Shown here one piece after another: positions 8,517 to 40,358 of a stretch of 64,000 nt of DNA (positions are counted from its first letter, which is position 1; every line of letters starts with the position of its first letter). Both the position numbers and the translations under genes were made by a program. Location: NCBI RefSeq assembly GCF_013315695.1, contig NZ_CP054353.1, one strand, 5' to 3'. The stretch comes from Escherichia coli. Its GTDB lineage: Bacteria > Pseudomonadota > Gammaproteobacteria > Enterobacterales > Enterobacteriaceae. Under the pieces are notes generated by a model, which saw nothing but the letters and a program-made list of their open reading frames with translations, was not told where the DNA came from and made no database searches.

Positions 8517-11500
8517 ATGAGTAAACTTTTGGATCGCTTTCGCTACTTCAAACAAAAGGGCGAAACCTTTGCCGATGGTCACGGACAGGTGATGCATAGC
8601 AACCGCGACTGGGAGGACAGCTATCGCCAGCGTTGGCAGTTCGACAAAATCGTGCGTTCCACCCACGGTGTTAACTGTACAGGCTCCTGTAGCTGGAAAA
8701 TCTACGTTAAAAATGGTCTGGTGACCTGGGAAATCCAACAGACCGACTACCCGCGCACTCGCCCTGACCTGCCCAATCATGAACCTCGCGGCTGCCCGCG
8801 TGGCGCAAGTTACTCCTGGTATCTCTACAGCGCTAACCGTCTGAAATACCCGCTCATTCGTAAACGACTGATTGAACTGTGGCGCGAAGCCCTCAAGCAA
8901 CACAGCGATCCGGTACTGGCGTGGGCATCGATTATGAACGATCCGCAAAAGTGCCTGAGCTACAAACAAGTGCGTGGGCGCGGCGGGTTTATCCGCTCCA
9001 ACTGGCAGGAGCTAAACCAGCTGATTGCCGCTGCTAACGTCTGGACCATCAAAACTTACGGCCCGGATCGCGTTGCCGGTTTCTCGCCGATCCCGGCGAT
9101 GTCGATGGTTTCTTACGCCGCCGGAACACGTTATCTGTCGCTGTTAGGTGGCACCTGTTTAAGCTTCTACGACTGGTATTGCGACCTGCCGCCCGCCTCG
9201 CCGATGACCTGGGGCGAGCAAACCGACGTACCGGAATCTGCCGACTGGTATAACTCCAGTTACATCATCGCCTGGGGGTCTAACGTACCGCAGACACGTA
9301 CGCCGGACGCCCATTTCTTTACCGAAGTACGCTACAAAGGCACTAAAACCATCGCTATTACCCCTGACTACTCTGAAGTGGCCAAATTGTGCGACCAGTG
9401 GCTGGCACCGAAACAAGGCACTGATAGTGCCCTGGCAATGGCAATGGGCCATGTCATTTTAAAAGAGTTTCATCTCGATAATCCCAGCGATTATTTTATC
9501 AACTACTGCCGCCGCTACAGCGACATGCCGATGCTGGTAATGCTGGAACCTCGCGACGACGGCAGCTACGTACCCGGGCGCATGATCCGCGCGTCTGACC
9601 TGGTAGATGGACTGGGCGAAAGCAACAATCCGCAGTGGAAAACCGTGGCGGTTAATACCGCAGGTGAACTGGTGGTGCCGAACGGTTCGATTGGTTTTCG
9701 CTGGGGAGAAAAAGGCAAATGGAATCTGGAATCCATTGCCGCCGGTACGGAAACCGAATTGTCGTTAACTCTGCTCGGTCAACATGATGCCGTTGCAGGC
9801 GTGGCCTTCCCCTACTTTGGCGGCATTGAAAATCCGCATTTTCGCCGCGTAAAACACAATCCGGTCCTGGTGCGCCAATTGCCCGTTAAAAACCTGACAT
9901 TAGCCGATGGCAACACCTGTCCGGTCGTCAGCGTTTATGATTTGGTACTGGCGAATTATGGCCTCGATCGCGGGCTGGAAGATGAAAACAGCGCGAAAGA
10001 TTACGCTGAAATCAAACCGTACACCCCAGCCTGGGGTGAGCAAATTACCGGCGTGCCGCGCCAGTATATTGAAACCATCGCCCGTGAATTTGCCGATACC
10101 GCCCATAAAACGCATGGGCGTTCGATGATTATTCTCGGTGCTGGCGTCAACCATTGGTATCACATGGACATGAACTACCGCGGGATGATCAATATGCTGA
10201 TCTTCTGCGGTTGTGTCGGGCAAAGCGGTGGCGGCTGGGCACACTATGTCGGTCAGGAAAAACTGCGCCCGCAAACCGGCTGGCTGCCTCTGGCTTTTGC
10301 GCTCGACTGGAACCGACCACCGCGCCAGATGAACAGCACCTCGTTTTTCTACAATCATTCCAGCCAATGGCGCTATGAAAAAGTCTCTGCTCAGGAGTTA
10401 CTTTCACCGCTTGCCGATGCCAGTAAGTACAGCGGTCATCTGATTGATTTCAACGTTCGCGCCGAACGTATGGGCTGGCTACCTTCTGCGCCGCAGTTGG
10501 GGCGTAATCCGCTCGGGATTAAAGCTGAAGCCGACAAGGCCGGATTATCTCCCACAGAATTCACCACCCAGGCGCTGAAATCGGGCGATTTACGTATGGC
10601 CTGCGAACAACCCGATAGCGGCAGCAATCATCCGCGTAATTTGTTTGTCTGGCGTTCTAACCTGCTTGGTTCCTCCGGCAAAGGCCACGAGTATATGCAG
10701 AAGTATCTGCTGGGGACCGAAAGCGGGATTCAGGGCGAGGAACTCGGTGCCAGCGACGGGATCAAACCGGAAGAAGTCGAGTGGCAAACTGCGGCGATTG
10801 AAGGCAAGCTCGACCTGCTGGTGACGCTCGACTTCCGCATGTCCAGTACCTGCCTGTTCTCCGATATCGTTCTGCCCACCGCCACCTGGTACGAAAAAGA
10901 CGATATGAACACCTCGGATATGCATCCGTTTATTCATCCGCTTTCTGCGGCGGTCGATCCGGCGTGGGAATCACGCAGCGACTGGGAAATCTACAAAGGT
11001 ATCGCCAAAGCATTTTCGCAACTGTGCGTGGGTCATCTTGGCAAAGAAACCGACGTGGTATTACAACCACTGCTGCATGACTCTCCGGCAGAACTCTCCC
11101 AGCCGTGTGAAGTGCTCGACTGGCGCAAAGGCGAATGCGATCTAATCCCGGGTAAAACCGCGCCCAATATTGTGGCGGTGGAACGCGACTACCCTGCTAC
11201 CTATGAACGCTTTACCTCGCTCGGGCCATTGATGGACAAACTTGGCAACGGCGGTAAAGGGATTTCGTGGAATACCCAGGATGAAATCGATTTCCTCGGC
11301 AAACTCAACTACACCAAGCGTGAAGGCCCGGCACAGGGGCGTCCGCTGATTGACACCGCCATTGACGCATCAGAAGTGATTCTGGCTCTTGCACCGGAAA
11401 CCAACGGTCATGTTGCAGTCAAAGCGTGGCAGGCGCTGGGCGAGATCACCGGACGCGAACATACCCATCTGGCGCTGCACAAAGAGGACGAGAAGATTCG

Positions 11501-12257
11501 CTTTCGCGATATTCAGGCGCAGCCACGTAAAATTATCTCCAGCCCCACATGGTCCGGTCTGGAAAGCGATCACGTTTCCTATAACGCGGGATACACCAAC
11601 GTTCATGAGTTAATTCCGTGGCGCACGCTGTCGGGACGCCAGCAGCTCTATCAGGATCATCCGTGGATGCGTGCTTTTGGTGAAAGTCTGGTGGCTTATC
11701 GCCCGCCTATCGACACCCGTAGCGTCAGTGAAATGCGCCAGATACCGCCAAACGGCTTCCCGGAGAAAGCCCTTAACTTCCTGACACCGCACCAGAAATG
11801 GGGCATTCACTCAACCTACAGTGAAAACCTGCTAATGCTGACGCTCTCTCGCGGTGGACCGATTGTCTGGATCAGCGAAACCGATGCCCGTGAACTGACC
11901 ATTGTCGATAACGACTGGGTGGAAGTGTTTAACGCCAATGGCGCGCTGACGGCCCGCGCGGTGGTCAGCCAGCGTGTACCGCCGGGCATGACCATGATGT
12001 ATCACGCTCAGGAACGCATTATGAATATTCCAGGTTCGGAAGTAACCGGCATGCGCGGTGGCATTCATAACTCGGTCACCCGCGTTTGTCCGAAACCAAC
12101 GCATATGATTGGCGGTTACGCGCAGCTGGCCTGGGGCTTTAACTACTACGGCACTGTCGGCTCTAACCGCGACGAATTCATCATGATCCGCAAGATGAAG
12201 AACGTTAACTGGCTGGATGATGAAGGTCGCGATCAGGTACAGGAGGCGAAAAAATGA
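8517..12257 (+). CDS. narZ: Respiratory nitrate reductase Z alpha subunit
   Basis: Start MSKLLDRFRYFKQKGETF inside track ORF; FS0 cluster motif HGVNCTGSCSWK; 1246 aa. Confidence 0.92.
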   Translation: MSKLLDRFRYFKQKGETFADGHGQVMHSNRDWEDSYRQRWQFDKIVRSTHGVNCTGSCSWKIYVKNGLVTWEIQQTDYPRTRPDLPNHEPRGCPRGASYSWYLYSANRLKYPLIRKRLIELWREALKQHSDPVLAWASIMNDPQKCLSYKQVRGRGGFIRSNWQELNQLIAAANVWTIKTYGPDRVAGFSPIPAMSMVSYAAGTRYLSLLGGTCLSFYDWYCDLPPASPMTWGEQTDVPESADWYNSSYIIAWGSNVPQTRTPDAHFFTEVRYKGTKTIAITPDYSEVAKLCDQWLAPKQGTDSALAMAMGHVILKEFHLDNPSDYFINYCRRYSDMPMLVMLEPRDDGSYVPGRMIRASDLVDGLGESNNPQWKTVAVNTAGELVVPNGSIGFRWGEKGKWNLESIAAGTETELSLTLLGQHDAVAGVAFPYFGGIENPHFRRVKHNPVLVRQLPVKNLTLADGNTCPVVSVYDLVLANYGLDRGLEDENSAKDYAEIKPYTPAWGEQITGVPRQYIETIAREFADTAHKTHGRSMIILGAGVNHWYHMDMNYRGMINMLIFCGCVGQSGGGWAHYVGQEKLRPQTGWLPLAFALDWNRPPRQMNSTSFFYNHSSQWRYEKVSAQELLSPLADASKYSGHLIDFNVRAERMGWLPSAPQLGRNPLGIKAEADKAGLSPTEFTTQALKSGDLRMACEQPDSGSNHPRNLFVWRSNLLGSSGKGHEYMQKYLLGTESGIQGEELGASDGIKPEEVEWQTAAIEGKLDLLVTLDFRMSSTCLFSDIVLPTATWYEKDDMNTSDMHPFIHPLSAAVDPAWESRSDWEIYKGIAKAFSQLCVGHLGKETDVVLQPLLHDSPAELSQPCEVLDWRKGECDLIPGKTAPNIVAVERDYPATYERFTSLGPLMDKLGNGGKGISWNTQDEIDFLGKLNYTKREGPAQGRPLIDTAIDASEVILALAPETNGHVAVKAWQALGEITGREHTHLALHKEDEKIRFRDIQAQPRKIISSPTWSGLESDHVSYNAGYTNVHELIPWRTLSGRQQLYQDHPWMRAFGESLVAYRPPIDTRSVSEMRQIPPNGFPEKALNFLTPHQKWGIHSTYSENLLMLTLSRGGPIVWISETDARELTIVDNDWVEVFNANGALTARAVVSQRVPPGMTMMYHAQERIMNIPGSEVTGMRGGIHNSVTRVCPKPTHMIGGYAQLAWGFNYYGTVGSNRDEFIMIRKMKNVNWLDDEGRDQVQEAKK

Positions 12258-13798
12258 AAATACGTTCGCAAGTCGGCATGGTGCTTAACCTCGATAAATG
12301 TATCGGCTGCCATACCTGTTCGGTGACCTGTAAAAACGTCTGGACCGGACGCGAAGGCATGGAGTACGCATGGTTTAACAACGTCGAAACCAAACCGGGC
12401 ATTGGTTATCCGAAAAACTGGGAAGATCAGGAAGAGTGGCAAGGCGGCTGGGTGCGTGATGTGAATGGCAAGATCCGCCCGCGTCTGGGCAGCAAGATGG
12501 GCGTAATAACCAAAATCTTCGCCAACCCGGTGGTGCCGCAGATTGATGATTACTACGAACCTTTCACCTTCGACTACGAACATTTGCATAGCGCACCGGA
12601 AGGCAAACATATCCCTACTGCTCGCCCGCGTTCACTGATTGACGGCAAACGGATGGACAAAGTGATCTGGGGGCCAAACTGGGAAGAATTGTTGGGCGGC
12701 GAATTCGAAAAACGCGCCCGTGACCGCAACTTCGAGGCCATGCAAAAGGAGATGTACGGGCAGTTTGAAAACACCTTCATGATGTACCTGCCGCGCTTGT
12801 GCGAACACTGCCTCAATCCCAGTTGCGTGGCGACCTGCCCAAGCGGCGCTATCTACAAACGCGAAGAAGACGGCATTGTGCTGATCGATCAGGATAAATG
12901 CCGTGGCTGGCGTTTGTGCATTAGCGGTTGTCCGTACAAAAAAATCTACTTCAACTGGAAAAGCGGCAAGTCAGAAAAATGCATCTTCTGTTATCCGCGA
13001 ATTGAGTCAGGCCAACCCACCGTGTGCTCAGAAACCTGCGTGGGTCGCATCCGATATCTGGGCGTGCTGCTTTACGACGCTGACCGCATCGAGGAAGCGG
13101 CGAGCACCGAGCGCGAAGTTGACCTCTATGAACGCCAGTGCGAAGTATTCCTCGATCCACACGATCCCTCAGTGATCGAGGAAGCCCTGAAACAAGGTAT
13201 TCCACAAAACGTGATTGACGCTGCCCAGCGTTCGCCAGTCTACAAAATGGCAATGGACTGGAAACTGGCGCTACCGCTGCACCCTGAATACCGCACCCTG
13301 CCGATGGTCTGGTACGTTCCGCCGCTGTCACCGATTCAGTCCTACGCTGATGCGGGAGGTTTGCCGAAAAGCGAAGGCGTGCTGCCCGCCATCGAAAGCC
13401 TGCGTATTCCGGTGCAATATCTCGCCAATATGTTGAGTGCCGGTGATACCGGTCCGGTACTGCGGGCGCTGAAACGGATGATGGCGATGCGCCACTATAT
13501 GCGTTCACAAACCGTGGAAGGCGTTACTGATACTCGTGCCATCGACGAAGTAGGTCTGAGCGTCGCCCAGGTCGAAGAGATGTATCGTTACCTCGCCATT
13601 GCCAACTATGAAGACCGTTTTGTCATTCCAACCAGTCATCGGGAAATGGCGGGCGATGCCTTCGCAGAACGCAACGGCTGCGGTTTTACCTTTGGCGACG
13701 GTTGCCACGGCTCGGACAGCAAATTCAACCTGTTCAACAGTAGCCGTATCGATGCCATCAACATCACCGAAGTGCGCGACAAAGCGGAGGGCGAATAA
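12254..13798 (+). CDS. narY: Respiratory nitrate reductase Z beta subunit (Fe-S)
   Basis: 514 aa, multiple Cys clusters (CIGCHTCSVTCK etc.), overlaps narZ stop by 4 nt. Confidence 0.92.
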   Translation: MKIRSQVGMVLNLDKCIGCHTCSVTCKNVWTGREGMEYAWFNNVETKPGIGYPKNWEDQEEWQGGWVRDVNGKIRPRLGSKMGVITKIFANPVVPQIDDYYEPFTFDYEHLHSAPEGKHIPTARPRSLIDGKRMDKVIWGPNWEELLGGEFEKRARDRNFEAMQKEMYGQFENTFMMYLPRLCEHCLNPSCVATCPSGAIYKREEDGIVLIDQDKCRGWRLCISGCPYKKIYFNWKSGKSEKCIFCYPRIESGQPTVCSETCVGRIRYLGVLLYDADRIEEAASTEREVDLYERQCEVFLDPHDPSVIEEALKQGIPQNVIDAAQRSPVYKMAMDWKLALPLHPEYRTLPMVWYVPPLSPIQSYADAGGLPKSEGVLPAIESLRIPVQYLANMLSAGDTGPVLRALKRMMAMRHYMRSQTVEGVTDTRAIDEVGLSVAQVEEMYRYLAIANYEDRFVIPTSHREMAGDAFAERNGCGFTFGDGCHGSDSKFNLFNSSRIDAINITEVRDKAEGE

Positions 13799-14493
13799 TG
13801 CAGATCCTCAAAGTGATCGGCCTGTTGATGGAGTATCCGGACGAGCTGTTGTGGGAATGTAAGGAGGACGCGCTGGCGTTGATCCGCCGCGACGCACCGA
13901 TGCTTACGGATTTTACCCGCAACCTGCTTAACGCGCCGCTGCTGGATAAACAGGCCGAATGGTGCGAAGTGTTTGACCGTGGACGTACCACATCGCTGCT
14001 GCTGTTCGAACATGTTCATGCCGAGTCCCGCGATCGCGGCCAGGCAATGGTGGACCTGCTGGCGGAGTATGAAAAGGTCGGCCTGCAGTTGGATTGTCGA
14101 GAACTGCCCGATTATCTACCGCTGTATCTGGAGTACTTAAGCGTACTGCCGGACGATCAGGCGAAAGAAGGCTTGCTCAACGTTGCGCCGATCCTCGCCC
14201 TGCTTGGCGGACGCTTAAAACAACGCGAGGCTCCGTGGCATTCGTTGTTTGACGCCCTGCTGCAACTGGCGGGAAGTACACTTTCAAGTGACAGTGTCAC
14301 AAAACAAGTAAACAACGAGGAGCGCGATGACACCCGCCAGGCGCTGGATGCGGTGTGGGAAGAAGAACAGGTGAAGTTTATTGAAGATAACGCCACGGCG
14401 TGTGACAGCTCGCCGCTTAATCAATATCAGCGACGCTTTAGCCAGGATGTCGCGCCGCAGTATGTCGACATCAGTGCGGGAGGTGGGAAATGA
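13798..14493 (+). CDS. narW: Nitrate reductase Z assembly chaperone (delta)
   Basis: 231 aa NarJ-family protein, 1-nt overlap with narY. Confidence 0.9.
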
Positions 14494-15170
14494 TTCAGTA
14501 TCTGAACGTCTTTTTTTATGATATCTACCCGTACTTGTGTGGCACGGTTTTTATCCTTGGAAGCTGGCTGCGCTACGATTACGGGCAGTATACCTGGCGC
14601 GCCGCCTCCAGCCAGATGCTGGATAAACGCGGGATGGTGCTGTGGTCGAACTTGTTCCATATCGGCATTCTGGGGATCTTCTTCGGTCATCTGTTCGGCA
14701 TGTTAACGCCGCACTGGATGTACGCGTGGTTTCTGCCGGTGGCGGTAAAACAGCAGATGGCGATGATCCTCGGCGGAATATGCGGGGTATTGACGCTGAT
14801 TGGCGGTGCGGGGCTACTGGTGCGTCGTTTAACAAATCCGCGTATCAGGGCGACGTCTTCTGGTGCGGATATCCTGATCCTCGCCATTTTGTTAATTCAG
14901 TGCATTCTTGGGTTAACCACCATTCCTTTTTCAGCACAACATCCGGACGGCAGTGAAATGATGAAGCTGGTGGGCTGGGCGCAAAGCATTGTCACTTTCC
15001 AGGGCGGTGCATCTACGCATCTTGATGGTGTCGCCTTTATATTCCGCGTTCATCTGGTGCTTGGAATGACCATCTTTCTGCTCTTCCCGTTCACCCGACT
15101 GGTGCATGTCTGGAGCGCGCCGTTTGAGTACTTTACTCGTCGGTATCAGATTGTGCGTTCGCGGCGTTAA
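14490..15170 (+). CDS. narV: Respiratory nitrate reductase Z gamma subunit (cytochrome b)
   Basis: 226 aa membrane heme protein, ATGA overlap with narW. Confidence 0.9.
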
Positions 15171-15249
15171 TTCTCACGCGGGCCGGATAGCCCTTCGCTC
15201 TCCGGCCACTTGCAGGCTATGATAGTTCTCCAGCCACAGGAGAACGTTA

Positions 15250-16143
15250 ATGAAACCGCAGGTGTACCACGTCGATGCTTTTACCTCTCAACCGTTTCGC
15301 GGCAATTCTGCCGGTGTTGTTTTCCCCGCCGATAATCTCAGCGAAGCGCAAATGCAGCTTATCGCCCGCGAATTAGGTCATTCCGAAACTGCTTTTCTGC
15401 TGCACAGCGACGACAGCGATGTGCGCATCCGCTACTTTACGCCAACGGTTGAAGTGCCGATTTGTGGTCACGCGACAGTAGCTGCGCACTATGTACGTGC
15501 AAAGGTGTTAGATTTAGGAAATTGCACGGTCTGGCAAACGTCACTGGCAGGAAAACACCGCGTGACTATCGAAAAGCATAACGATGATTATCGTATTTCG
15601 CTGGAACAAGGTACGCCGGGCTTTGAGCCACCGCTGGAAGGTGAAACACGAGCGGCGATTATCAACGCGCTTCATCTCACTGAAGACGATATTTTGCCTG
15701 GCTTGCCAATTCAGGTGGCAACCACAGGACACTCAAAAGTGATGATCCCACTGAAACCAGAAGTGGATATCGACGCCCTTTCGCCTGATCTTGCTGCGCT
15801 GACCGCTATCAGCAAACAGATTGGCTGCAATGGTTTCTTCCCGTTCCAGATCCGCCCAGGCAAAAACGAAACCGACGGTCGTATGTTCTCGCCTGCCATT
15901 GGTATTGTGGAAGATCCGGTGACCGGCAATGCCAATGGCCCGATGGGTGCATGGTTAGTACATCACAACGTATTGCCACACGATGGCAACGTGTTGCGTG
16001 TTAAAGGCCATCAGGGGCGCGCATTAGGGCGTGACGGCGTGATTGAAGTGACGGTGACAATTCGTGATAACCAACCGGAGAAAGTCACCATTTCTGGCAC
16101 GGCGGTGATTTTGTTTCATGCCGAATGGGCAATTGAACTCTGA
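15250..16143 (+). CDS. yddE: PhzF-family isomerase-like protein
   Basis: 297 aa, synteny downstream of narV. Confidence 0.85.
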   Translation: MKPQVYHVDAFTSQPFRGNSAGVVFPADNLSEAQMQLIARELGHSETAFLLHSDDSDVRIRYFTPTVEVPICGHATVAAHYVRAKVLDLGNCTVWQTSLAGKHRVTIEKHNDDYRISLEQGTPGFEPPLEGETRAAIINALHLTEDDILPGLPIQVATTGHSKVMIPLKPEVDIDALSPDLAALTAISKQIGCNGFFPFQIRPGKNETDGRMFSPAIGIVEDPVTGNANGPMGAWLVHHNVLPHDGNVLRVKGHQGRALGRDGVIEVTVTIRDNQPEKVTISGTAVILFHAEWAIEL

Positions 16144-16150
16144 AACCGTT

Positions 16151-16228
16151 GCCTGATGCGCTTCGCTTATCAGGCCTACAACCGGACTAATGTATGCCGG
16201 ATTAGGCATTTACGCCACATCCGGCAAC
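16151..16228. repeat. BIME (two inverted REP units) between yddE and nhoA
   Basis: gcctgatgcgcttcgcttatcaggcctac and tgccggattaggcatttacgccacatccggca read in sequence. Confidence 0.65.
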
Positions 16229-16238
16229 CTGACATAAA

Positions 16239-17084
16239 TTATTTTCCCGCCTCCGGGTGCGTATCAAACGCCGCCATCACCAGCGCTAACTCATCCACAG
16301 TAAAGCCATGTTTCACATCATCCACGCCCAGACCAAACTGTTCCTGCATCACGGCATATAACGACGCCACATCTGGTAGATTTCGCTGCTCAACTGCGTG
16401 CCCATTTTCATAATGGGTAAAATGAAAATTGGTCAGCGTTAGCTTGCCACCGTCCGGCAAATGGCGACACATCAGCAAATGATGGCGAAAATGAGACTGC
16501 GGCCAGTGCGCCGACCAGAAATTGCCCATCACATAATCGCTTTGTTGCTGCTCGCAGAGATCAAAACGGTACATCGACTGCCAGTGCTGATGATGATTAA
16601 ACTGCAACACCCAATCATCACCCTCCTGTAACAACCGATACTCTCCGTGTGGCGTGAACTGCACGAGATCGGGAACTAAACGAATCGGCGCGGTTAGCGT
16701 CTGCCCACCGAAGCCGACATCAGCAATCCATTTTTCCCCTTCCAGTTCCACCAACAGCAAACGATGGGTGCGCGGCGGTAATGCTGGCGGATTTGATAAC
16801 ACTACGCGCCCTAACAAGCTGCGAACGTTAAACCCCAGCTCGCATAACACCCGCTCAAACACGCCATTCTGCTCAAAACAGTAACCGCCACGATGGGCTG
16901 TCACCAGTTTTTCTTCCAGCGATTGATCATCAAGCTGTATTTCCCTCGGCAGCAAAACGTCGAGGTTTTCAAACGGAATAGTGCAATTGTGTTTCAGGTG
17001 CAATGCACGCAGCGTATCAATATTGACCGCAGCAGCTCCCGACCAGTTAATACGGGCAAAATAATGATTCAGAATGGGCGTCAT
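16239..17084 (-). CDS. nhoA: Arylamine N-acetyltransferase (N-hydroxyarylamine O-acetyltransferase)
   Basis: 281 aa, NAT family, synteny. Confidence 0.88.
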   Translation of the reverse strand: MTPILNHYFARINWSGAAAVNIDTLRALHLKHNCTIPFENLDVLLPREIQLDDQSLEEKLVTAHRGGYCFEQNGVFERVLCELGFNVRSLLGRVVLSNPPALPPRTHRLLLVELEGEKWIADVGFGGQTLTAPIRLVPDLVQFTPHGEYRLLQEGDDWVLQFNHHQHWQSMYRFDLCEQQQSDYVMGNFWSAHWPQSHFRHHLLMCRHLPDGGKLTLTNFHFTHYENGHAVEQRNLPDVASLYAVMQEQFGLGVDDVKHGFTVDELALVMAAFDTHPEAGK

Positions 17085-17258
17085 CAGGCGTTTCCCTTAG
17101 TGGTTTTCTCAACTTATAACCTGGAATAGACGCCGCACCGGCTATTTTGTGCGATCGCGGACATGCATCACGTTCGCAAATCGCCAATCCCGTTAATTTC
17201 GTTACTTATTGCGTTACGAGCTACGCTTTTAAAACACCCTTCATAGCGAGGCGATATC

Positions 17259-17828
17259 GTGAGCCAATTCATTCCCGTCGAATTACACCATGCCAGCCGT
17301 CTGTTAAATCATGGCCCAACTGTCTTGATCACCAGTTTCGATGAGCAATCCCAGCGGCGTAACATTATGGCTGCAGCCTGGTCAATGCCGGTGGAGTTTG
17401 AACCTCCACGCGTCGCGATTGTGGTAGATAAGTCGACATGGACCAGGGAGTTGATTGAGCGTAACGGTAAATTTGGCATCGTTATCCCAGGCGTTGCAGC
17501 GACTAACTGGACGTGGGCAGTGGGAAGTGTATCTGGGCGTGAAGAGGATAAATTTAATTGCTATGGCATTCCGGTGGTGGAAGGTCCGGTGCTTGGTTTG
17601 CCACTTGTTGAAGAGAAATGTCTGGCGTGGATGGAGTGCCGATTGCTACCAGCGACTTCCGCGCAAGAGAAATACGACACGCTGTTTGGCGAAGTGGTAT
17701 CAGCAGCGGCAGACGCACGGGTATTTGTCGAAGGCCGCTGGCAGTTTGATGATGATAAGCTCAATACGTTGCATCATTTAGGCGCTGGCACGTTTGTTAC
17801 CAGCGGCAAGCGTGTTACGGCAGGTTAA
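17259..17828 (+). CDS. yddH: Flavin reductase-like domain protein
   Basis: 189 aa, synteny. Confidence 0.8.
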   Translation: MSQFIPVELHHASRLLNHGPTVLITSFDEQSQRRNIMAAAWSMPVEFEPPRVAIVVDKSTWTRELIERNGKFGIVIPGVAATNWTWAVGSVSGREEDKFNCYGIPVVEGPVLGLPLVEEKCLAWMECRLLPATSAQEKYDTLFGEVVSAAADARVFVEGRWQFDDDKLNTLHHLGAGTFVTSGKRVTAG

Positions 17829-17831
17829 GCA

Positions 17832-18059
17832 TTACATGCTGTAACCAGGTTTCTTTATCAGCGTCTCCATTTGGGGCGCAATTTCGGCGTCCCAGATAGC
17901 TTGCCATGATTCTGGTTGAATCTGCTGTAGAGCAATGCTTATCGAACTGTCTTTACTGTTCAGATGGCGAATAATAACGTCGGTAATATCTGCAGCAAGT
18001 GCTGCTTTTTGTTGTTCGTCCAGTTCACGTGGAAAACATTTAATGTCTATGTGCGGCAT
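17832..18059 (-). CDS. pptA: 4-oxalocrotonate tautomerase-family protein
   Basis: Starts [18 protein letters not shown] (internal Met of track ORF 17832..18098); N-terminal Pro after Met typical of tautomerases. Confidence 0.85.
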
Positions 18060-18363
18060 GATTGTGCTCCTTTTGAAAGATGTCAGTAAAATTAACACAC
18101 GTTGTGAATGTTATGTGTCCGGTGATGCTTTTTTACGGCAATAATGCCTACTTGAATTTGTACAGGTTTGTACTACACCCTTTTAAATAAAGCGCCAACA
18201 AAAACGTCAACTTGCAGAATATATTCTTCGCCAACATGCCATTAAGAAAACATCAAGTTCCCAGCTTGCCAATTTATTAACGCCCATTATAGTTATTCTT
18301 GCCCTCACAAAAATTTTCATCCGTAATTACCCCCAATAAAAGTCCATTCTGGAGACGCTTAAG

Positions 18364-18978
18364 ATGCAGCTTAATCATATTGTTAAAAGTCTGCTAATAA
18401 CGGGATTATTCACCACCAGTTCTTTGCCACTCCTCGCGGCGGAAGCCCCTAAAGACGCCACCGCAGCCACGCAACAAGCAAACAATTTACTCTACAACCA
18501 GTTGCCGTTTTCTGATAACACTGACTTTACTGATGCCCATAAAGGTTTTGTTGCCCCTATCCCTCAAGACGTGATTAAGGGCGAAAAAGGAAATGTTATC
18601 TGGGATCCACAACAATACGCTTTTATTAAAGAAGGTGATAAAGCCCCTGATACGGTGAATCCAAGTTTATGGCGTCAGGCGCAACTGATAAATATCAGCG
18701 GGTTATTCGAAGTAACTGAAGGTGTCTATCAGATTCGCAATCTCGATCTATCAAATATGACCATCATTGAAGGCAAAGAGGGTATTACCATCGTTGATCC
18801 CCTTGTTTCAGCAGAAACAGCCAAAGTGGGTATGGATCTCTATTACAAAAATCGCGACAAAAAACCGGTAGTAGCGGTTATCTACACACACAGTCATGTC
18901 GATCACTACGGTGGTGTTCGCGGCGTAATTGATGAAGCTGACGTTAAATCAGGCAAAGTTAAAATCTACGCGCCAGCC
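18364..18978 (+). pseudogene. Alkyl/aryl-sulfatase (YjcS/BDS1-like, metallo-beta-lactamase fold) N-terminal fragment, interrupted by IS1
   Basis: Signal peptide plus MBL motif THSHVDHYGG; reading frame runs directly into IS1 left end. Confidence 0.75.
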
Positions 18979-19033
18979 GGTGATGCTGCCAACTTACTGA
19001 TTTAGTGTATGATGGTGTTTTTGAGGTGCTCCA

Positions 19034-19309
19034 GTGGCTTCTGTTTCTATCAGCTGTCCCTCCTGTTCAGCTACTGACGGGGTGGTGCGTAACGGCAAAA
19101 GCACCGCCGGACATCAGCGCTATCTCTGCTCTCACTGCCGTAAAACATGGCAACTGCAGTTCACTTACACCGCTTCTCAACCCGGTACGCACCAGAAAAT
19201 CATTGATATGGCCATGAATGGCGTTGGATGCCGGGCAACAGCCCGCATTATGGGCGTTGGCCTCAACACGATTTTACGTCACTTAAAAAACTCAGGCCGC
19301 AGTCGGTAA
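19034..19309 (+). CDS. insA: IS1 InsA
   Basis: 91-aa [43 protein letters not shown]. Confidence 0.95.
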
Positions 19310-19731
19310 CCTCGCGCATACAGCCGGGCAGTGACGTCATCGTCTGCGCGGAAATGGACGAACAGTGGGGCTATGTCGGGGCTAAATCGCGCCAGCGCTG
19401 GCTGTTTTACGCGTATGACAGGCTCCGGAAGACGGTTGTTGCGCACGTATTCGGTGAACGCACTATGGCGACGCTGGGGCGTCTTATGAGCCTGCTGTCA
19501 CCCTTTGACGTGGTGATATGGATGACGGATGGCTGGCCGCTGTATGAATCCCGCCTGAAGGGAAAGCTGCACGTAATCAGCAAGCGATATACGCAGCGAA
19601 TTGAGCGGCATAACCTGAATCTGAGGCAGCACCTGGCACGGCTGGGACGGAAGTCGCTGTCGTTCTCAAAATCGGTGGAGCTGCATGACAAAGTCATCGG
19701 GCATTATCTGAACATAAAACACTATCAATAA
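19228..19731 (+). CDS. insB: IS1 InsB (transposase made as InsAB by -1 frameshift)
   Basis: 167-aa ORF overlapping insA; A-run slippery site upstream. Confidence 0.95.
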
Positions 19732-19746
19732 GTTGGAGTCATTACC

Positions 19747-20721
19747 GAAGCTCTCAATTTATGGGGAGATAAAGCCGAGATTATTCTCGCTCAACATCAC
19801 TGGCCAACCTGGGGCAACGATAACGTGGTCAAACTGCTTAAAAGCCAGCGTGATTTGTATCGTTACATCAATGATCAAACTCTGCGTATGGCAAATCAAG
19901 GGATGACCCGTGATGAAATTGCCGCAAACTTTAAACTGCCCTCTTCACTGGCTAATACCTGGGCGAATCGCGGCTATTACGGTTCGGTAAGTCATGACGT
20001 GAAAGCAACTTACGTGCTTTATCTCGGCTGGTTTGATGGTAACCCCGCGACGCTTGATGAACTGCCGCCAGAAGAAGGCGCAAAAAAATTCGTCGAGTAT
20101 ATGGGCGGTGCTGATGCCATTTTACAGAAAGCCAAACAGGATTATGACCAGGGTAATTTCCGCTGGGTTGCCCAAGTTGTTAGTAAGGTGGTGTTTACCG
20201 ATCCAAACAACCAGGCAGCGAGAAATCTGGAAGCTGATGCGCTTGAGCAGTTAGGCTATCAGGCTGAATCTGGGCCGTGGCGTAATTTCTATCTCACTGG
20301 CGCACAGGAATTGCGTAATGGCGTACAAAAATTACCAACACCAAATACTGCCAGCCCAGACACCGTGCGTGCGATGACGCCGGAGATGTTCTTTGATTAT
20401 CTTGCCGTCCATATTAATGGTGAGAAAGCGGCAGATGCCAAAACCGTGTTGAATTTCGATTTTGGTGAAGATGGCGGCACCTATAAAGTGGAGCTTGAAA
20501 ATGGTGTTCTCAATCATACCGCTGGTGTAGAGGCTTCGGATGCTGATGCCACTATCACTCTGTCTCGTGATGTATTGAACAAAATTGTACTGAAAGAAGA
20601 GACGCTGAAAGAAGCCACGGCCAAAGAAGATGTCAAAATTACTGGCAATGCGGAAAAACTCAACGAGCTGTTAGGTTATATGGATAATTTTGAATTTTGG
20701 TTCAATATAGTGACACCATAA
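19747..20721 (+). pseudogene. Alkyl/aryl-sulfatase C-terminal fragment (dimerisation and SCP2-like region)
   Basis: Open frame from IS1 junction through track ORF 19825..20721; same gene family as N-terminal fragment. Confidence 0.7.
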
Positions 20722-20733
20722 ATTTACTGCATA

Positions 20734-20758
20734 CCGGGCAGGTATCCTGCCCTTTTTT
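20734..20758 (+). terminator. Rho-independent terminator after sulfatase fragment
   Basis: ccgggcagg-tatc-cctgccc followed by TTTTTT. Confidence 0.5.
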
Positions 20759-20767
20759 GGTTAAAAA

Positions 20768-21865
20768 ATGGCTGAACGAAGAAAAACGCATCACTCATGG
20801 AAAACCCGCCGCGATATGGTTATTCGCGGCATGACGATTAGTTTGCCATGGTTTGCTTTTATCAATGTCAGTTTTGCATTGATAATTTTGCTGCGCCGTG
20901 TTCTGTTTAATGACCTTACTCCACCCTGGTTAAATGAAAAAAGCCTTATACATTCTATTGATATATCTGCAACGGGTATTCTGCTGATTTGCAGTGGTTT
21001 ACTACTCATCCCTCGGCAAAAAACATTACCTATCCAGGTGCTATTAGTTGCCCTGAGCCTGCTATGGTCATGGTGTAGTTATCACTTTATTGCGTACTGG
21101 ACGCTGCAGTTTGCTTATCCACTATGTGTATTATTAATGCTTAGTGGCGTTATCGCACTTTATTTCCATACCCCATCATTGCTCGCATTTGTCATTCCCT
21201 TATGGTTCACCACTCCAATAGCGAGTCTTATGCTTAATCAACAGATCAATATTCATTTTGCTGTTGTATGGTGTATTTTTTCACTGGCGCTATATGGTGG
21301 GCGACTCATTTTGTTACGTTGGTTTGAAGAAGCATGGGTACAAAACAGTTATAACAACCAGTTAATTAATCGCCTTGATGCATTAGCACATCGTGATCCT
21401 TTAACTGGGATAGCAAACCGACGTGCAATGAACAGTATCTTACACGACGCGATAGATAACGGCGGGTCATTTGCTCTTATTATGCTGGATGTCGATTTTT
21501 TTAAACGTTACAACGACACTTACGGGCATCCTGCTGGGGATCGTTGTCTAATACAAGTTGCCGACGCTCTACAGCGTTCAACTCGCCAGTCGGAGGATGT
21601 TGTTGTCCGTTATGGTGGCGAAGAGTTTGTCATCATACTTTTTAATGCAACATTGCCGGAAGCAGAGACGGTAGCAGCCAGAGTGAAGCAAGAACTTAAA
21701 CTGGCAGCTATCCCGCATCAGGCATCTGCTGTTAATGCATTCGTTACGGTTAGTCAGGGGATTACCTGTTCTGCTCCCGCAAAAACGGCTGAACAAATTA
21801 TTTCAGATGCCGACGCTGCGTTATACCGGGCGAAAGAAAGTGGGCGAAATCGATGGGAAAAATAA
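20768..21865 (+). CDS. Membrane-anchored diguanylate cyclase (GGDEF domain, GGEEF active site)
   Basis: N-terminal hydrophobic segments then RYGGEEF and DGC domain motifs; not a K-12 gene at this locus; start codon uncertain. Confidence 0.8.
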   Translation: MAERRKTHHSWKTRRDMVIRGMTISLPWFAFINVSFALIILLRRVLFNDLTPPWLNEKSLIHSIDISATGILLICSGLLLIPRQKTLPIQVLLVALSLLWSWCSYHFIAYWTLQFAYPLCVLLMLSGVIALYFHTPSLLAFVIPLWFTTPIASLMLNQQINIHFAVVWCIFSLALYGGRLILLRWFEEAWVQNSYNNQLINRLDALAHRDPLTGIANRRAMNSILHDAIDNGGSFALIMLDVDFFKRYNDTYGHPAGDRCLIQVADALQRSTRQSEDVVVRYGGEEFVIILFNATLPEAETVAARVKQELKLAAIPHQASAVNAFVTVSQGITCSAPAKTAEQIISDADAALYRAKESGRNRWEK

Positions 21866-22483
21866 TTAAATGATTCCATTCCTCTTTAGTATCCCTTTTA
21901 GCTTTGGTATCTGACATACAGCATCAGCAATCGCATTGATGTTCGGGGCATTATCCTGAAACCATTCGTGTCCCGGTCCCCATGTGCGCATGGTGCAGAG
22001 ATAACAGTCCACCAGCGTTAGTTGCTCTCCAAACACATACGGTTCAGCGGTCAATTGTGAATTCAGCCAGATATAAAGCGATTTACGATATTCAATAACA
22101 TTATTCTTTAACTGTTCGGGTGCGTCAGGAGCCCAACGCTTAGGGTAATCGGCGAAAGTGAACGTTGGATAGACATTAGCAACCAGCCAGACCAATAACC
22201 GTTGAAACTGCTAGCGTTCGGTGCGCCCAACCGGTGGCGCAAGGTCCGGGCGACGATCGAGAACCATCAATGCAATCGCCGCTGTCTCCGTCATAATCTC
22301 GTCATTTTCCAGCGCCAGTGTCGGAATCTGACACAACGGGTTCAGGGTTTTCAATAAATCGCGTGAAGTTCCCTCGTGGTCAAAACCACTGACATCAACG
22401 AACTGATAAGGAATATCAGCCAGTGTTAGCATCATCTCACTGATTGTAGTGCCCCATCCGGGTACGCCATACACCTTAATCAT
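21866..22483 (-). pseudogene. yncG: Glutathione S-transferase-like protein with in-frame amber (TAG) codon at 22211..22213
   Basis: Track ORFs 22211..22483 and 21866..22195 are in the same frame separated by a single TAG; together they cover GST N- and C-domains. Confidence 0.8.
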
Positions 22484-27802: not shown

Positions 27803-27817
27803 GGTAATGACTCCAAC

Positions 27818-28321
27818 TTATTGATAGTGTTTTATGTTCAGATAATGCCCGATGACTTTGTCATGCAGCTCCACCGATTTTGAGAACGACAGCGACTTCC
27901 GTCCCAGCCGTGCCAGGTGCTGCCTCAGATTCAGGTTATGCCGCTCAATTCGCTGCGTATATCGCTTGCTGATTACGTGCAGCTTTCCCTTCAGGCGGGA
28001 TTCATACAGCGGCCAGCCATCCGTCATCCATATCACCACGTCAAAGGGTGACAGCAGGCTCATAAGACGCCCCAGCGTCGCCATAGTGCGTTCACCGAAT
28101 ACGTGCGCAACAACCGTCTTCCGGAGCCTGTCATACGCGTAAAACAGCCAGCGCTGGCGCGATTTAGCCCCGACATAGCCCCACTGTTCGTCCATTTCCG
28201 CGCAGACGATGACGTCACTGCCCGGCTGTATGCGCGAGGTTACCGACTGCGGCCTGAGTTTTTTAAGTGACGTAAAATCGTGTTGAGGCCAACGCCCATA
28301 ATGCGGGCTGTTGCCCGGCAT
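27818..28321 (-). CDS. insB: IS1 InsB
   Basis: Identical translation to other copies. Confidence 0.95.
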
Positions 28322-28515
28322 CCAACGCCATTCATGGCCATATCAATGATTTTCTGGTGCGTACCGGGTTGAGAAGCGGTGTAAGTGAACTGCAGTTGCC
28401 ATGTTTTACGGCAGTGAGAGCAGAGATAGCGCTGATGTCCGGCGGTGCTTTTGCCGTTACGCACCACCCCGTCAGTAGCTGAACAGGAGGGACAGCTGAT
28501 AGAAACAGAAGCCAC
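28240..28515 (-). CDS. insA: IS1 InsA
   Basis: Identical translation to other copies. Confidence 0.95.
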
Positions 28516-28570
28516 TGGAGCACCTCAAAAACACCATCATACACTAAATCAGTAAGTTGGCAGCATCACC

Positions 28571-32024: not shown

Positions 32025-32079
32025 GGTGATGCTGCCAACTTACTGATTTAGTGTATGATGGTGTTTTTGAGGTGCTCCA

Positions 32080-32355
32080 GTGGCTTCTGTTTCTATCAGC
32101 TGTCCCTCCTGTTCAGCTACTGACGGGGTGGTGCGTAACGGCAAAAGCACCGCCGGACATCAGCGCTATCTCTGCTCTCACTGCCGTAAAACATGGCAAC
32201 TGCAGTTCACTTACACCGCTTCTCAACCCGGTACGCACCAGAAAATCATTGATATGGCCATGAATGGCGTTGGATGCCGGGCAACAGCCCGCATTATGGG
32301 CGTTGGCCTCAACACGATTTTACGTCACTTAAAAAACTCAGGCCGCAGTCGGTAA
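32080..32355 (+). CDS. insA: IS1 InsA
   Basis: Identical translation to other copies. Confidence 0.95.
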
Positions 32356-32777
32356 CCTCGCGCATACAGCCGGGCAGTGACGTCATCGTCTGCGCGGAAA
32401 TGGACGAACAGTGGGGCTATGTCGGGGCTAAATCGCGCCAGCGCTGGCTGTTTTACGCGTATGACAGGCTCCGGAAGACGGTTGTTGCGCACGTATTCGG
32501 TGAACGCACTATGGCGACGCTGGGGCGTCTTATGAGCCTGCTGTCACCCTTTGACGTGGTGATATGGATGACGGATGGCTGGCCGCTGTATGAATCCCGC
32601 CTGAAGGGAAAGCTGCACGTAATCAGCAAGCGATATACGCAGCGAATTGAGCGGCATAACCTGAATCTGAGGCAGCACCTGGCACGGCTGGGACGGAAGT
32701 CGCTGTCGTTCTCAAAATCGGTGGAGCTGCATGACAAAGTCATCGGGCATTATCTGAACATAAAACACTATCAATAA
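32274..32777 (+). CDS. insB: IS1 InsB
   Basis: Identical translation to other copies. Confidence 0.95.
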
Positions 32778-32846
32778 GTTGGAGTCATTACCGGATTTTC
32801 TTAACCCGTACTATACACATAGGGGCAATGATAAAAGGTGGCAAAA

Positions 32847-40038: not shown

Positions 40039-40147
40039 TATCGAATCGTTATTATGTGCAGGTGATTCGGCAGTCTATATCAGTTGTTAAAAATGACAAC
40101 TTTTCATTAACTGTTATCAAACCATCACCAGCGATAACTCCTTGCCT

Positions 40148-40183
<36 letters not shown>

Positions 40184-40358
40184 TTACCTCCGTGTGTAAT
40201 GTGCTCGAAAATAGCACTAAATCGCCGCAACGGCAGAATGCTATGCAAAATCAGGAAGGAAGATTCCAGAATTTCTTTGCGCTAATTTGCAAAACTGAAT
40301 AATAACCTCAAGAAACGATCGGCATCATAGCGTCAAAAGGTTAGAAAAAGGTGGCGGG

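Follow-up and report, generated by a model that had tools for sequence, protein, structure and literature searches.

Deletion of genes in association with the insertion sequence IS1 is a class of event known since the early studies of this element. Wan et al. reportedly described in 2023 large IS1-related chromosomal deletions in clinical Escherichia coli, for example in the nfsB region. IS1 generates 8–9-bp duplications and transposes replicatively in the chromosome (PMC12428005), and adjacent deletions formed by intramolecular replicative transposition are typical of IS1 and Tn9 (PMC9330008); IS1 adjacent deletion is also attributed to Turlan and Chandler (1995), as cited in PMC12428005. Deletions that carry an insertion sequence at their centre with no target-site duplication (TSD), termed ‘IS-Del’ events, have been described for IS150, IS5 and IS481, with no IS1 case reported there (PMC11708052). 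Among the type III sulfatases, the family of the gene considered here, SdsAP binds its metals through His192, His194, Asp196, His197, Glu303, Glu322 and His367 (PMC5426288).

Here, we analyze a 64-kb stretch of an E. coli genome (hereafter the window) in which a sulfatase gene is split by a complete IS1 and has lost 387 bp at the site of the element. As in the clinical nfsB-type deletions, IS1 lies at the edge of a chromosomal deletion, but those deletions are large and drug-selected, whereas the loss here is confined to 387 bp of one accessory gene and shows no sign of selection. The arrangement also resembles the ‘IS-Del’ events in having an insertion sequence without a duplication at the centre of a deletion. 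Its closest counterparts are the IS1-mediated adjacent deletions (PMC9330008), which likewise keep an intact IS1, extend from an IS1 terminus, lack a duplication and include nested related deletions; we find no mechanistic difference from these, the window event being known from its end product alone. The feature is an ordinary IS1-associated pseudogene, already flagged in public annotation, and represents no new mechanism.

The element is a complete IS1 of the IS1A type, 768 bp long and on the plus strand (18979..19746), and is labelled ‘IS1-like element IS1A family transposase, programmed frameshift’ in the RefSeq annotation of strain MSB1_4I (NZ_LR898874.1). Its terminal inverted repeats, IRL (18979-19001, GGTGATGCTGCCAACTTACTGAT) and IRR (19724-19746, GGTAATGACTCCAACTTATTGAT), match at 18/23 positions, in agreement with the imperfect repeats of ~23 bp (GGTGATGCTGCCAAC...) and the length of ~768 bp that characterize IS1. 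On the plus strand, open reading frames (ORFs) were called for insA (19034-19309) and for the insB' frame (19228-19731), and the A6C motif TTAAAAAACTC at 19283 corresponds to the −1 programmed frameshift of the IS1 family. The Pfam models Zn_ribbon_InsA, HTH_Tnp_IS1 and DDE_Tnp_IS1 all match an identical IS1 copy in another locus (L005). The 9 bp on the two sides of the element differ (GCGCCAGCC on the left, GAAGCTCTC on the right), as an earlier sequence-only reading of this DNA had observed; no direct repeat of any length was found in the 12-bp flanks, and the 8–9-bp TSD of the IS1 family is absent at 18979-19746. The missing duplication speaks against a simple insertion, not against the identity of the element as IS1.

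The ORF upstream of the element starts at 18364 and contributes 205 codons up to the IS1 left end, after which eight IS1-derived codons lead to a stop at 19005; the motif THSHVDHYGG occupies residues 175-184 of this ORF (nt 18886-18915). The sulfatase frame reopens at 19747, the first base past IS1, and runs for 324 codons to a stop at 20721. These ORFs agree with the sequence-only reading, in which a metallo-beta-lactamase (MBL)-fold sulfatase-like frame carrying that motif ran into IS1 at 18979 and an open frame resumed at 19747. An intact allele of 1977 bp, encoding 658 aa (WP_001176575.1), is found in E. coli SMS-3-5, and the gene is intact in many other strains as well. Aligned with it, the 5’ fragment (18364..18978, plus strand, codons 1-205) corresponds to nt 1-615 with 0/615 mismatches, and the 3’ fragment (19747..20721, plus strand, codons 335-658 and the stop) to nt 1003-1977 with 0/975 mismatches.

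The two fragments are not contiguous in the intact allele. Exactly 387 bp are missing from the window gene, equal to 129 codons (residues 206-334) and in frame. The sequence-only reading had proposed that the insertion was not simple and that part of the gene had probably been removed, with alignment to an intact homologue as the check, and the absence of these 129 residues upholds that proposal. Because nt 615 and nt 1003 are not adjacent in the intact homologue, a simple insertion whose duplication has decayed is excluded, and the element has no TSD because its flanks derive from sites 387 bp apart. Both IS1 termini are complete and the gap comprises nt 616-1002 of the intact allele, so that the missing DNA begins exactly at the IS terminus, with a 2-nt ambiguity (GG) at the left junction because the missing segment and IS1 both start with GG.

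Domain assignment of the intact protein places Pfam Lactamase_B at residues 128-226, Alkyl_sulf_dimr (PF14863) at residues 388-526 (E = 3.6e-62) and the SCP2-like Alkyl_sulf_C (PF14864) at residues 534-658 (E = 7.3e-44), the latter two encoded within 19747-20721. The closest solved structures, 7tl5, SdsAP (4nur), YjcS (4pdx), Pisa1 and SdsA1, align with it end to end, and together with the Pfam domains they corroborate the alkylsulfatase-like assignment made in the sequence-only reading. The intact product would thus be a periplasmic type III (MBL-fold) alkyl/aryl-sulfatase, with the three-domain architecture of SdsA1, SdsAP, Pisa1 and YjcS and a metal-ligand spacing like that of SdsAP. It is not yjcS itself but a paralogue at the pptA-yncG locus.

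Mapping by the SdsAP spacing assigns the metal ligands to H176, H178, D180, H181, E287, E306 and H351, and all seven are present in the SMS-3-5 allele. In the window, H176-x-H178-x-D180-H181 lies in the 5’ fragment, which covers an N-terminus resembling a signal peptide and the beginning of the MBL domain. The 3’ fragment has H351 in the last part of that domain and also encodes the dimerisation and SCP2-like C-terminal domains. The zinc-ligand glutamates E287 and E306 lie within the deleted residues 206-334, and the window gene does not have the full ligand set of a type III sulfatase. Unlike the SdsA1/SdsAP/Pisa1/YjcS family it is split by IS1 and lacks these residues; because two glutamate ligands fall in the deleted stretch, the catalytic domain is, as judged from the ligand map, destroyed even leaving IS1 aside. 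The split and truncated gene is predicted to be unable to encode a full catalytic domain, and no functional enzyme should be made from it. The RefSeq annotation of MSB1_4I labels the 5’ fragment ‘MBL fold metallo-hydrolase, incomplete, missing C-terminus’ and the 3’ fragment ‘alkyl/aryl-sulfatase, incomplete, missing N-terminus’.

The sequence-only reading had also recommended comparing the same locus in related strains. In one of these, CP049609.1, the flanks differ from the window by 0-1 substitutions over 6.4 kb and the gene has no IS1 and retains the 387 bp; MSB1_4I shares the split structure, with exactly the same two junctions. As the near-identical CP049609.1 still carries those 387 bp, the loss is evidently derived within the lineage. 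The window and MSB1_4I differ by 8 substitutions over 64 kb, and by this measure the window is a sister isolate of MSB1_4I in the same clone. Joined as one query, the gene fragments gave matches in 527/5,426 complete E. coli genomes. In this set, MSB1_4I alone had the left junction, and no genome other than MSB1_4I and the sister isolate AF3 had the right one. By exact-product look-up, the 213-aa N-terminal fragment with its IS1-derived tail occurs in 593 blocks of public assemblies and the 298-aa C-terminal ORF in 794. Since the fragments are found in hundreds of public assemblies, the disrupted allele is fixed in a widespread clone.

CP049609.1 encodes a 343-aa N-terminal fragment and was considered as a possible precursor, but this candidate was rejected, the fragment being due to an unrelated, nested IS903 insertion. 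At positions 1806-3911 of that locus (L013), one IS903-like element is nested in another and is bounded by a 9-bp duplication, CTCAATTTA (gene nt 1009-1017). It constitutes an independent disruption 6 bp from the IS1 right junction, and the proximity of the two may mean that insertions favour this spot or that the gene has been lost repeatedly.

Among long contigs, the structure seen in the window is the common state, with several derived states beside it. In AF3 (NZ_OZ547117.1) and about 18 other contigs, the right junction is identical and IS1 is joined at its left end to a truncated porin gene; the L009 and L010 assemblies likewise have the right junction as in the window and the left end in the porin gene, 15.1 kb away. 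In the AF3 locus L003, IS1 lies at 7273-8040 and the extra loss relative to the window amounts to ~15.1 kb (18979 minus 3835; window 3835-18978). This deletion takes narU-narZ-narH-narW-narI (the nitrate reductase Z cluster), yddE, nhoA, yddH, pptA and the 5’ sulfatase fragment, and the lost sequence starts with GGTG, the first 4 nt of IS1. Adjacent deletion leaves one junction common and the other differing among related genomes, and the AF3 type has this pattern.

A second derived state involves the uid locus (L006, L007, L011; GCA_000461175.1, OZ039495.1). There, the gene orders are sulfatase-5'-IS1-uidB'-uidA and manA-ydgA-uidC'-IS1-sulfatase-3', and parts of uidB and uidC are missing. These orders indicate a large inversion between the sulfatase IS1 and the uid locus, with the other end in uidB/uidC. 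No common 9-bp target was found at the inversion junctions between the two uid-side flanks, and because these flanks share no 9-bp repeat the rearrangement gives no information on mechanism. A third state is a 1-bp insertion in the 5’ sulfatase fragment (L008, 2539-3156), present in 10 or more similar contigs, which shortens the product from 213 aa to 189 aa; this subgroup represents continuing decay of the sulfatase pseudogene.

Beyond annotation the locus has little import: it records that a widespread E. coli clone, clinical or commensal, has lost an accessory sulfatase. The two specific IS1 junctions offer a clean clonal marker. Both the 15-kb deletion that takes the narZ operon and the uid inversion, found in sister isolates, were later seeded by this single IS1 copy.

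The window holds two further IS1 copies, at 27803-28570 (minus strand) and 32025-32792 (plus strand), both 100% identical to the copy at 18979-19746. The first lies between pqqU and mcbR and has the canonical 9-bp duplication, GGCATTTAC, on both sides; because the site is empty in AF3, it is a recent simple transposition in the window’s sublineage. The second is shared with AF3 and has no duplication, its flanks being ...AAGAAACG and GGATTTTCT..., and about 236 bp are missing relative to SMS-3-5, so that the toxin gene ortT lacks its 5’ part and the spacer on the side of yncL is gone. Comparison with SMS-3-5 thus identifies it as a second IS1-associated small deletion in the window. From the gap at 32025-32792 and the normal duplication at 27803-28570, IS1 in the window is active and repeatedly associated with small flanking deletions.

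At the three IRL junctions that lie beside missing DNA (18978/18979, 32024/32025 and L003 7272/7273), the lost sequence starts like IS1 itself (GG, G and GGTG, respectively), a post hoc observation with n = 3. The matches could be due to chance, to a target preference for sequence resembling the IS1 end, or to microhomology-guided joining.

How the 387 bp were lost can be approached from these structures. The gap is bounded precisely by complete IS1 termini, which argues for an event driven by transposase or by IS homology and not for a random deletion. The most likely route, in our view and with moderate confidence, is that IS1 first inserted in the simple manner and that its transposase then mediated an adjacent deletion. 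In this scheme, IS1 would first have struck the intact 1977-bp sulfatase gene and made a 9-bp duplication. One IS1 end would then have acted, by intramolecular replicative transposition, on a second site of the gene at a distance of 387 bp, and the intervening DNA would have been lost together with one copy of the original 9-bp duplication while IS1 stayed in place. This would leave IS1 intact between flanks drawn from sites 387 bp apart, with no TSD in common. We infer both the order of these events and that transposase, rather than host recombination, caused the deletion.

Within this scheme we tentatively take the right junction, with GAAGCTCTC as target, to be the site of the primary insertion; the deletion would then have run leftward from the IRL end. 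The more AT-rich context of the right junction (60% vs 50% at the left) and the IS903 insertion 6 bp away weakly suggest that it was the primary target. Several observations favour adjacent deletion over its alternatives: it is documented as typical IS1 behaviour, the AF3 type shows a nested pattern with one fixed junction, and the scheme needs two events where recombination needs three.

The principal alternative is that two IS1 copies inserted in the same orientation 387 bp apart and that RecA-dependent recombination then deleted one IS1 along with the 387-bp spacer. This sequence of events predicts exactly the observed flanks and gap, and we regard it as possible though distinctly less probable than adjacent deletion; its targets would have been GCGCCAGCC (nt 607-615) and GAAGCTCTC (nt 1003-1011). 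Material for such exchanges is abundant, with at least 40 identical IS1 copies in the genome able to recombine, and the inversion to the uid locus in sister isolates shows that IS1-to-IS1 exchanges take place in the clone. Recombination between IS copies is moreover a frequent cause of missing duplications (PMC11708052). Against these points stands the need for three events, including two same-orientation insertions within 387 bp, which would be rare if insertion is random: the genome record (5.28 Mb) has at least 40 IS1 places, and on a rough estimate an even spread of about 40 IS1 over 5.28 Mb would yield about 0.06 same-orientation pairs within 400 bp. The ortT copy 13 kb away adds to the difficulty, since its ~236-bp gap would again require two close insertions under recombination, and no two-IS1 intermediate was seen in any long contig examined. 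The AF3 deletion itself could have arisen by recombination with a lost porin::IS1 copy, although no porin::IS1 simple insertion that might have been its source was found among the long contigs.

The scheme of insertion followed by adjacent deletion predicts a precursor, with IS1 and a 9-bp duplication at either junction and the gene otherwise complete. Such a structure was absent from the 5,426 complete E. coli genomes and from every distinct context in which long contigs carry the 213-aa or the 298-aa fragment. Exact-product look-up returned no record of the 345-aa N-terminal fragment predicted for a right-site precursor or of the 442-aa C-terminal fragment predicted for a left-site precursor (the latter with one of several possible starts). 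Two gapped junction patterns gave 0 matches in JGI metagenomes, a weak result as that collection had no positive control. With no precursor found, and with every IS1 copy identical, so that a recombinant element would go unrecognized, sequence does not separate the three routes considered here. The two mechanisms named in the sequence-only reading, adjacent deletion or recombination between IS1 copies, both entail the loss seen in the gene, and adjacent deletion is the likelier of the two.

The lack of a duplication-bearing precursor in any collection searched would fit a third route, in which insertion and deletion occurred in one step that left no duplication at any stage: the IS1 ends would have joined sites 387 bp apart, or IS1 would have been captured at a break formed as the deletion arose. 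Deletion-coupled IS movements that lack duplications have been reported, and such a route has been proposed (PMC11708052), but all the long-term-evolution cases in that work can be classified as ordinary adjacent deletions and none involves IS1. The missing precursor is also weak evidence, since every sampled member of the clone descends from a carrier of the allele, and we consider this route improbable. Were it correct, the window would show that TSD-less ‘IS-Del’ events (PMC11708052) occur in nature with IS1 as well, the ortT copy (about 236 bp) being a second case, and the GG, GGTG (AF3) and G (ortT) matches would hint at microhomology-guided joining.

IS1 is a multi-copy repeat that is often mis-assembled, but an assembly artefact through a false join across it can be rejected, as the two junctions recur in hundreds of sample blocks and in assemblies made independently, both long-read and draft. 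A simple insertion with a mutated duplication can be rejected too, as the fragments lie 387 bp apart in the intact allele.

The sulfatase gene is situated between pptA and a gene for a GGDEF-domain protein, with yncG and ansP adjoining. Upstream of the sulfatase gene, a candidate promoter-like site on the plus strand at 18266..18293 consists of TTGCCA and TATAGT separated by a 16-nt spacer, with 10/12 matches in a consensus scan in which the count of such sites in the region did not exceed the shuffle expectation. Directly past the sulfatase stop, at 20736..20762 on the plus strand, is a terminator-like hairpin with a 7-pair stem that includes 6 G-C pairs, followed by the T-run TTTTTTGGTT. Its position suggests that the GGDEF gene beyond it is transcribed separately, and given this hairpin polar effects on that gene would not be expected.

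The block containing the sulfatase and GGDEF genes (window 18264-22140) is 100% identical to SMS-3-5, while the DNA on either side differs by roughly 1–6% per 500 bp. This suggests that the two genes form an accessory module that was recently exchanged between lineages or that is unusually conserved. The neighbouring yncG, a glutathione S-transferase homologue (window 21866-22483, minus strand), is broken into two ORFs (109 aa and 90 aa), and RefSeq records it as a pseudogene with an internal stop in both MSB1_4I and AF3. As the 90-aa N-terminal yncG ORF is also called in CP049609.1 (L013), this defect may be older than the IS1 event. Elsewhere in the region, the MSB1_4I record lists, downstream of the porin gene, two genes for leucine-rich-repeat proteins that are partial or frameshifted (window about 4139-5024), and a 78-bp hicB antitoxin fragment near ydcR (window about 40117-40194).
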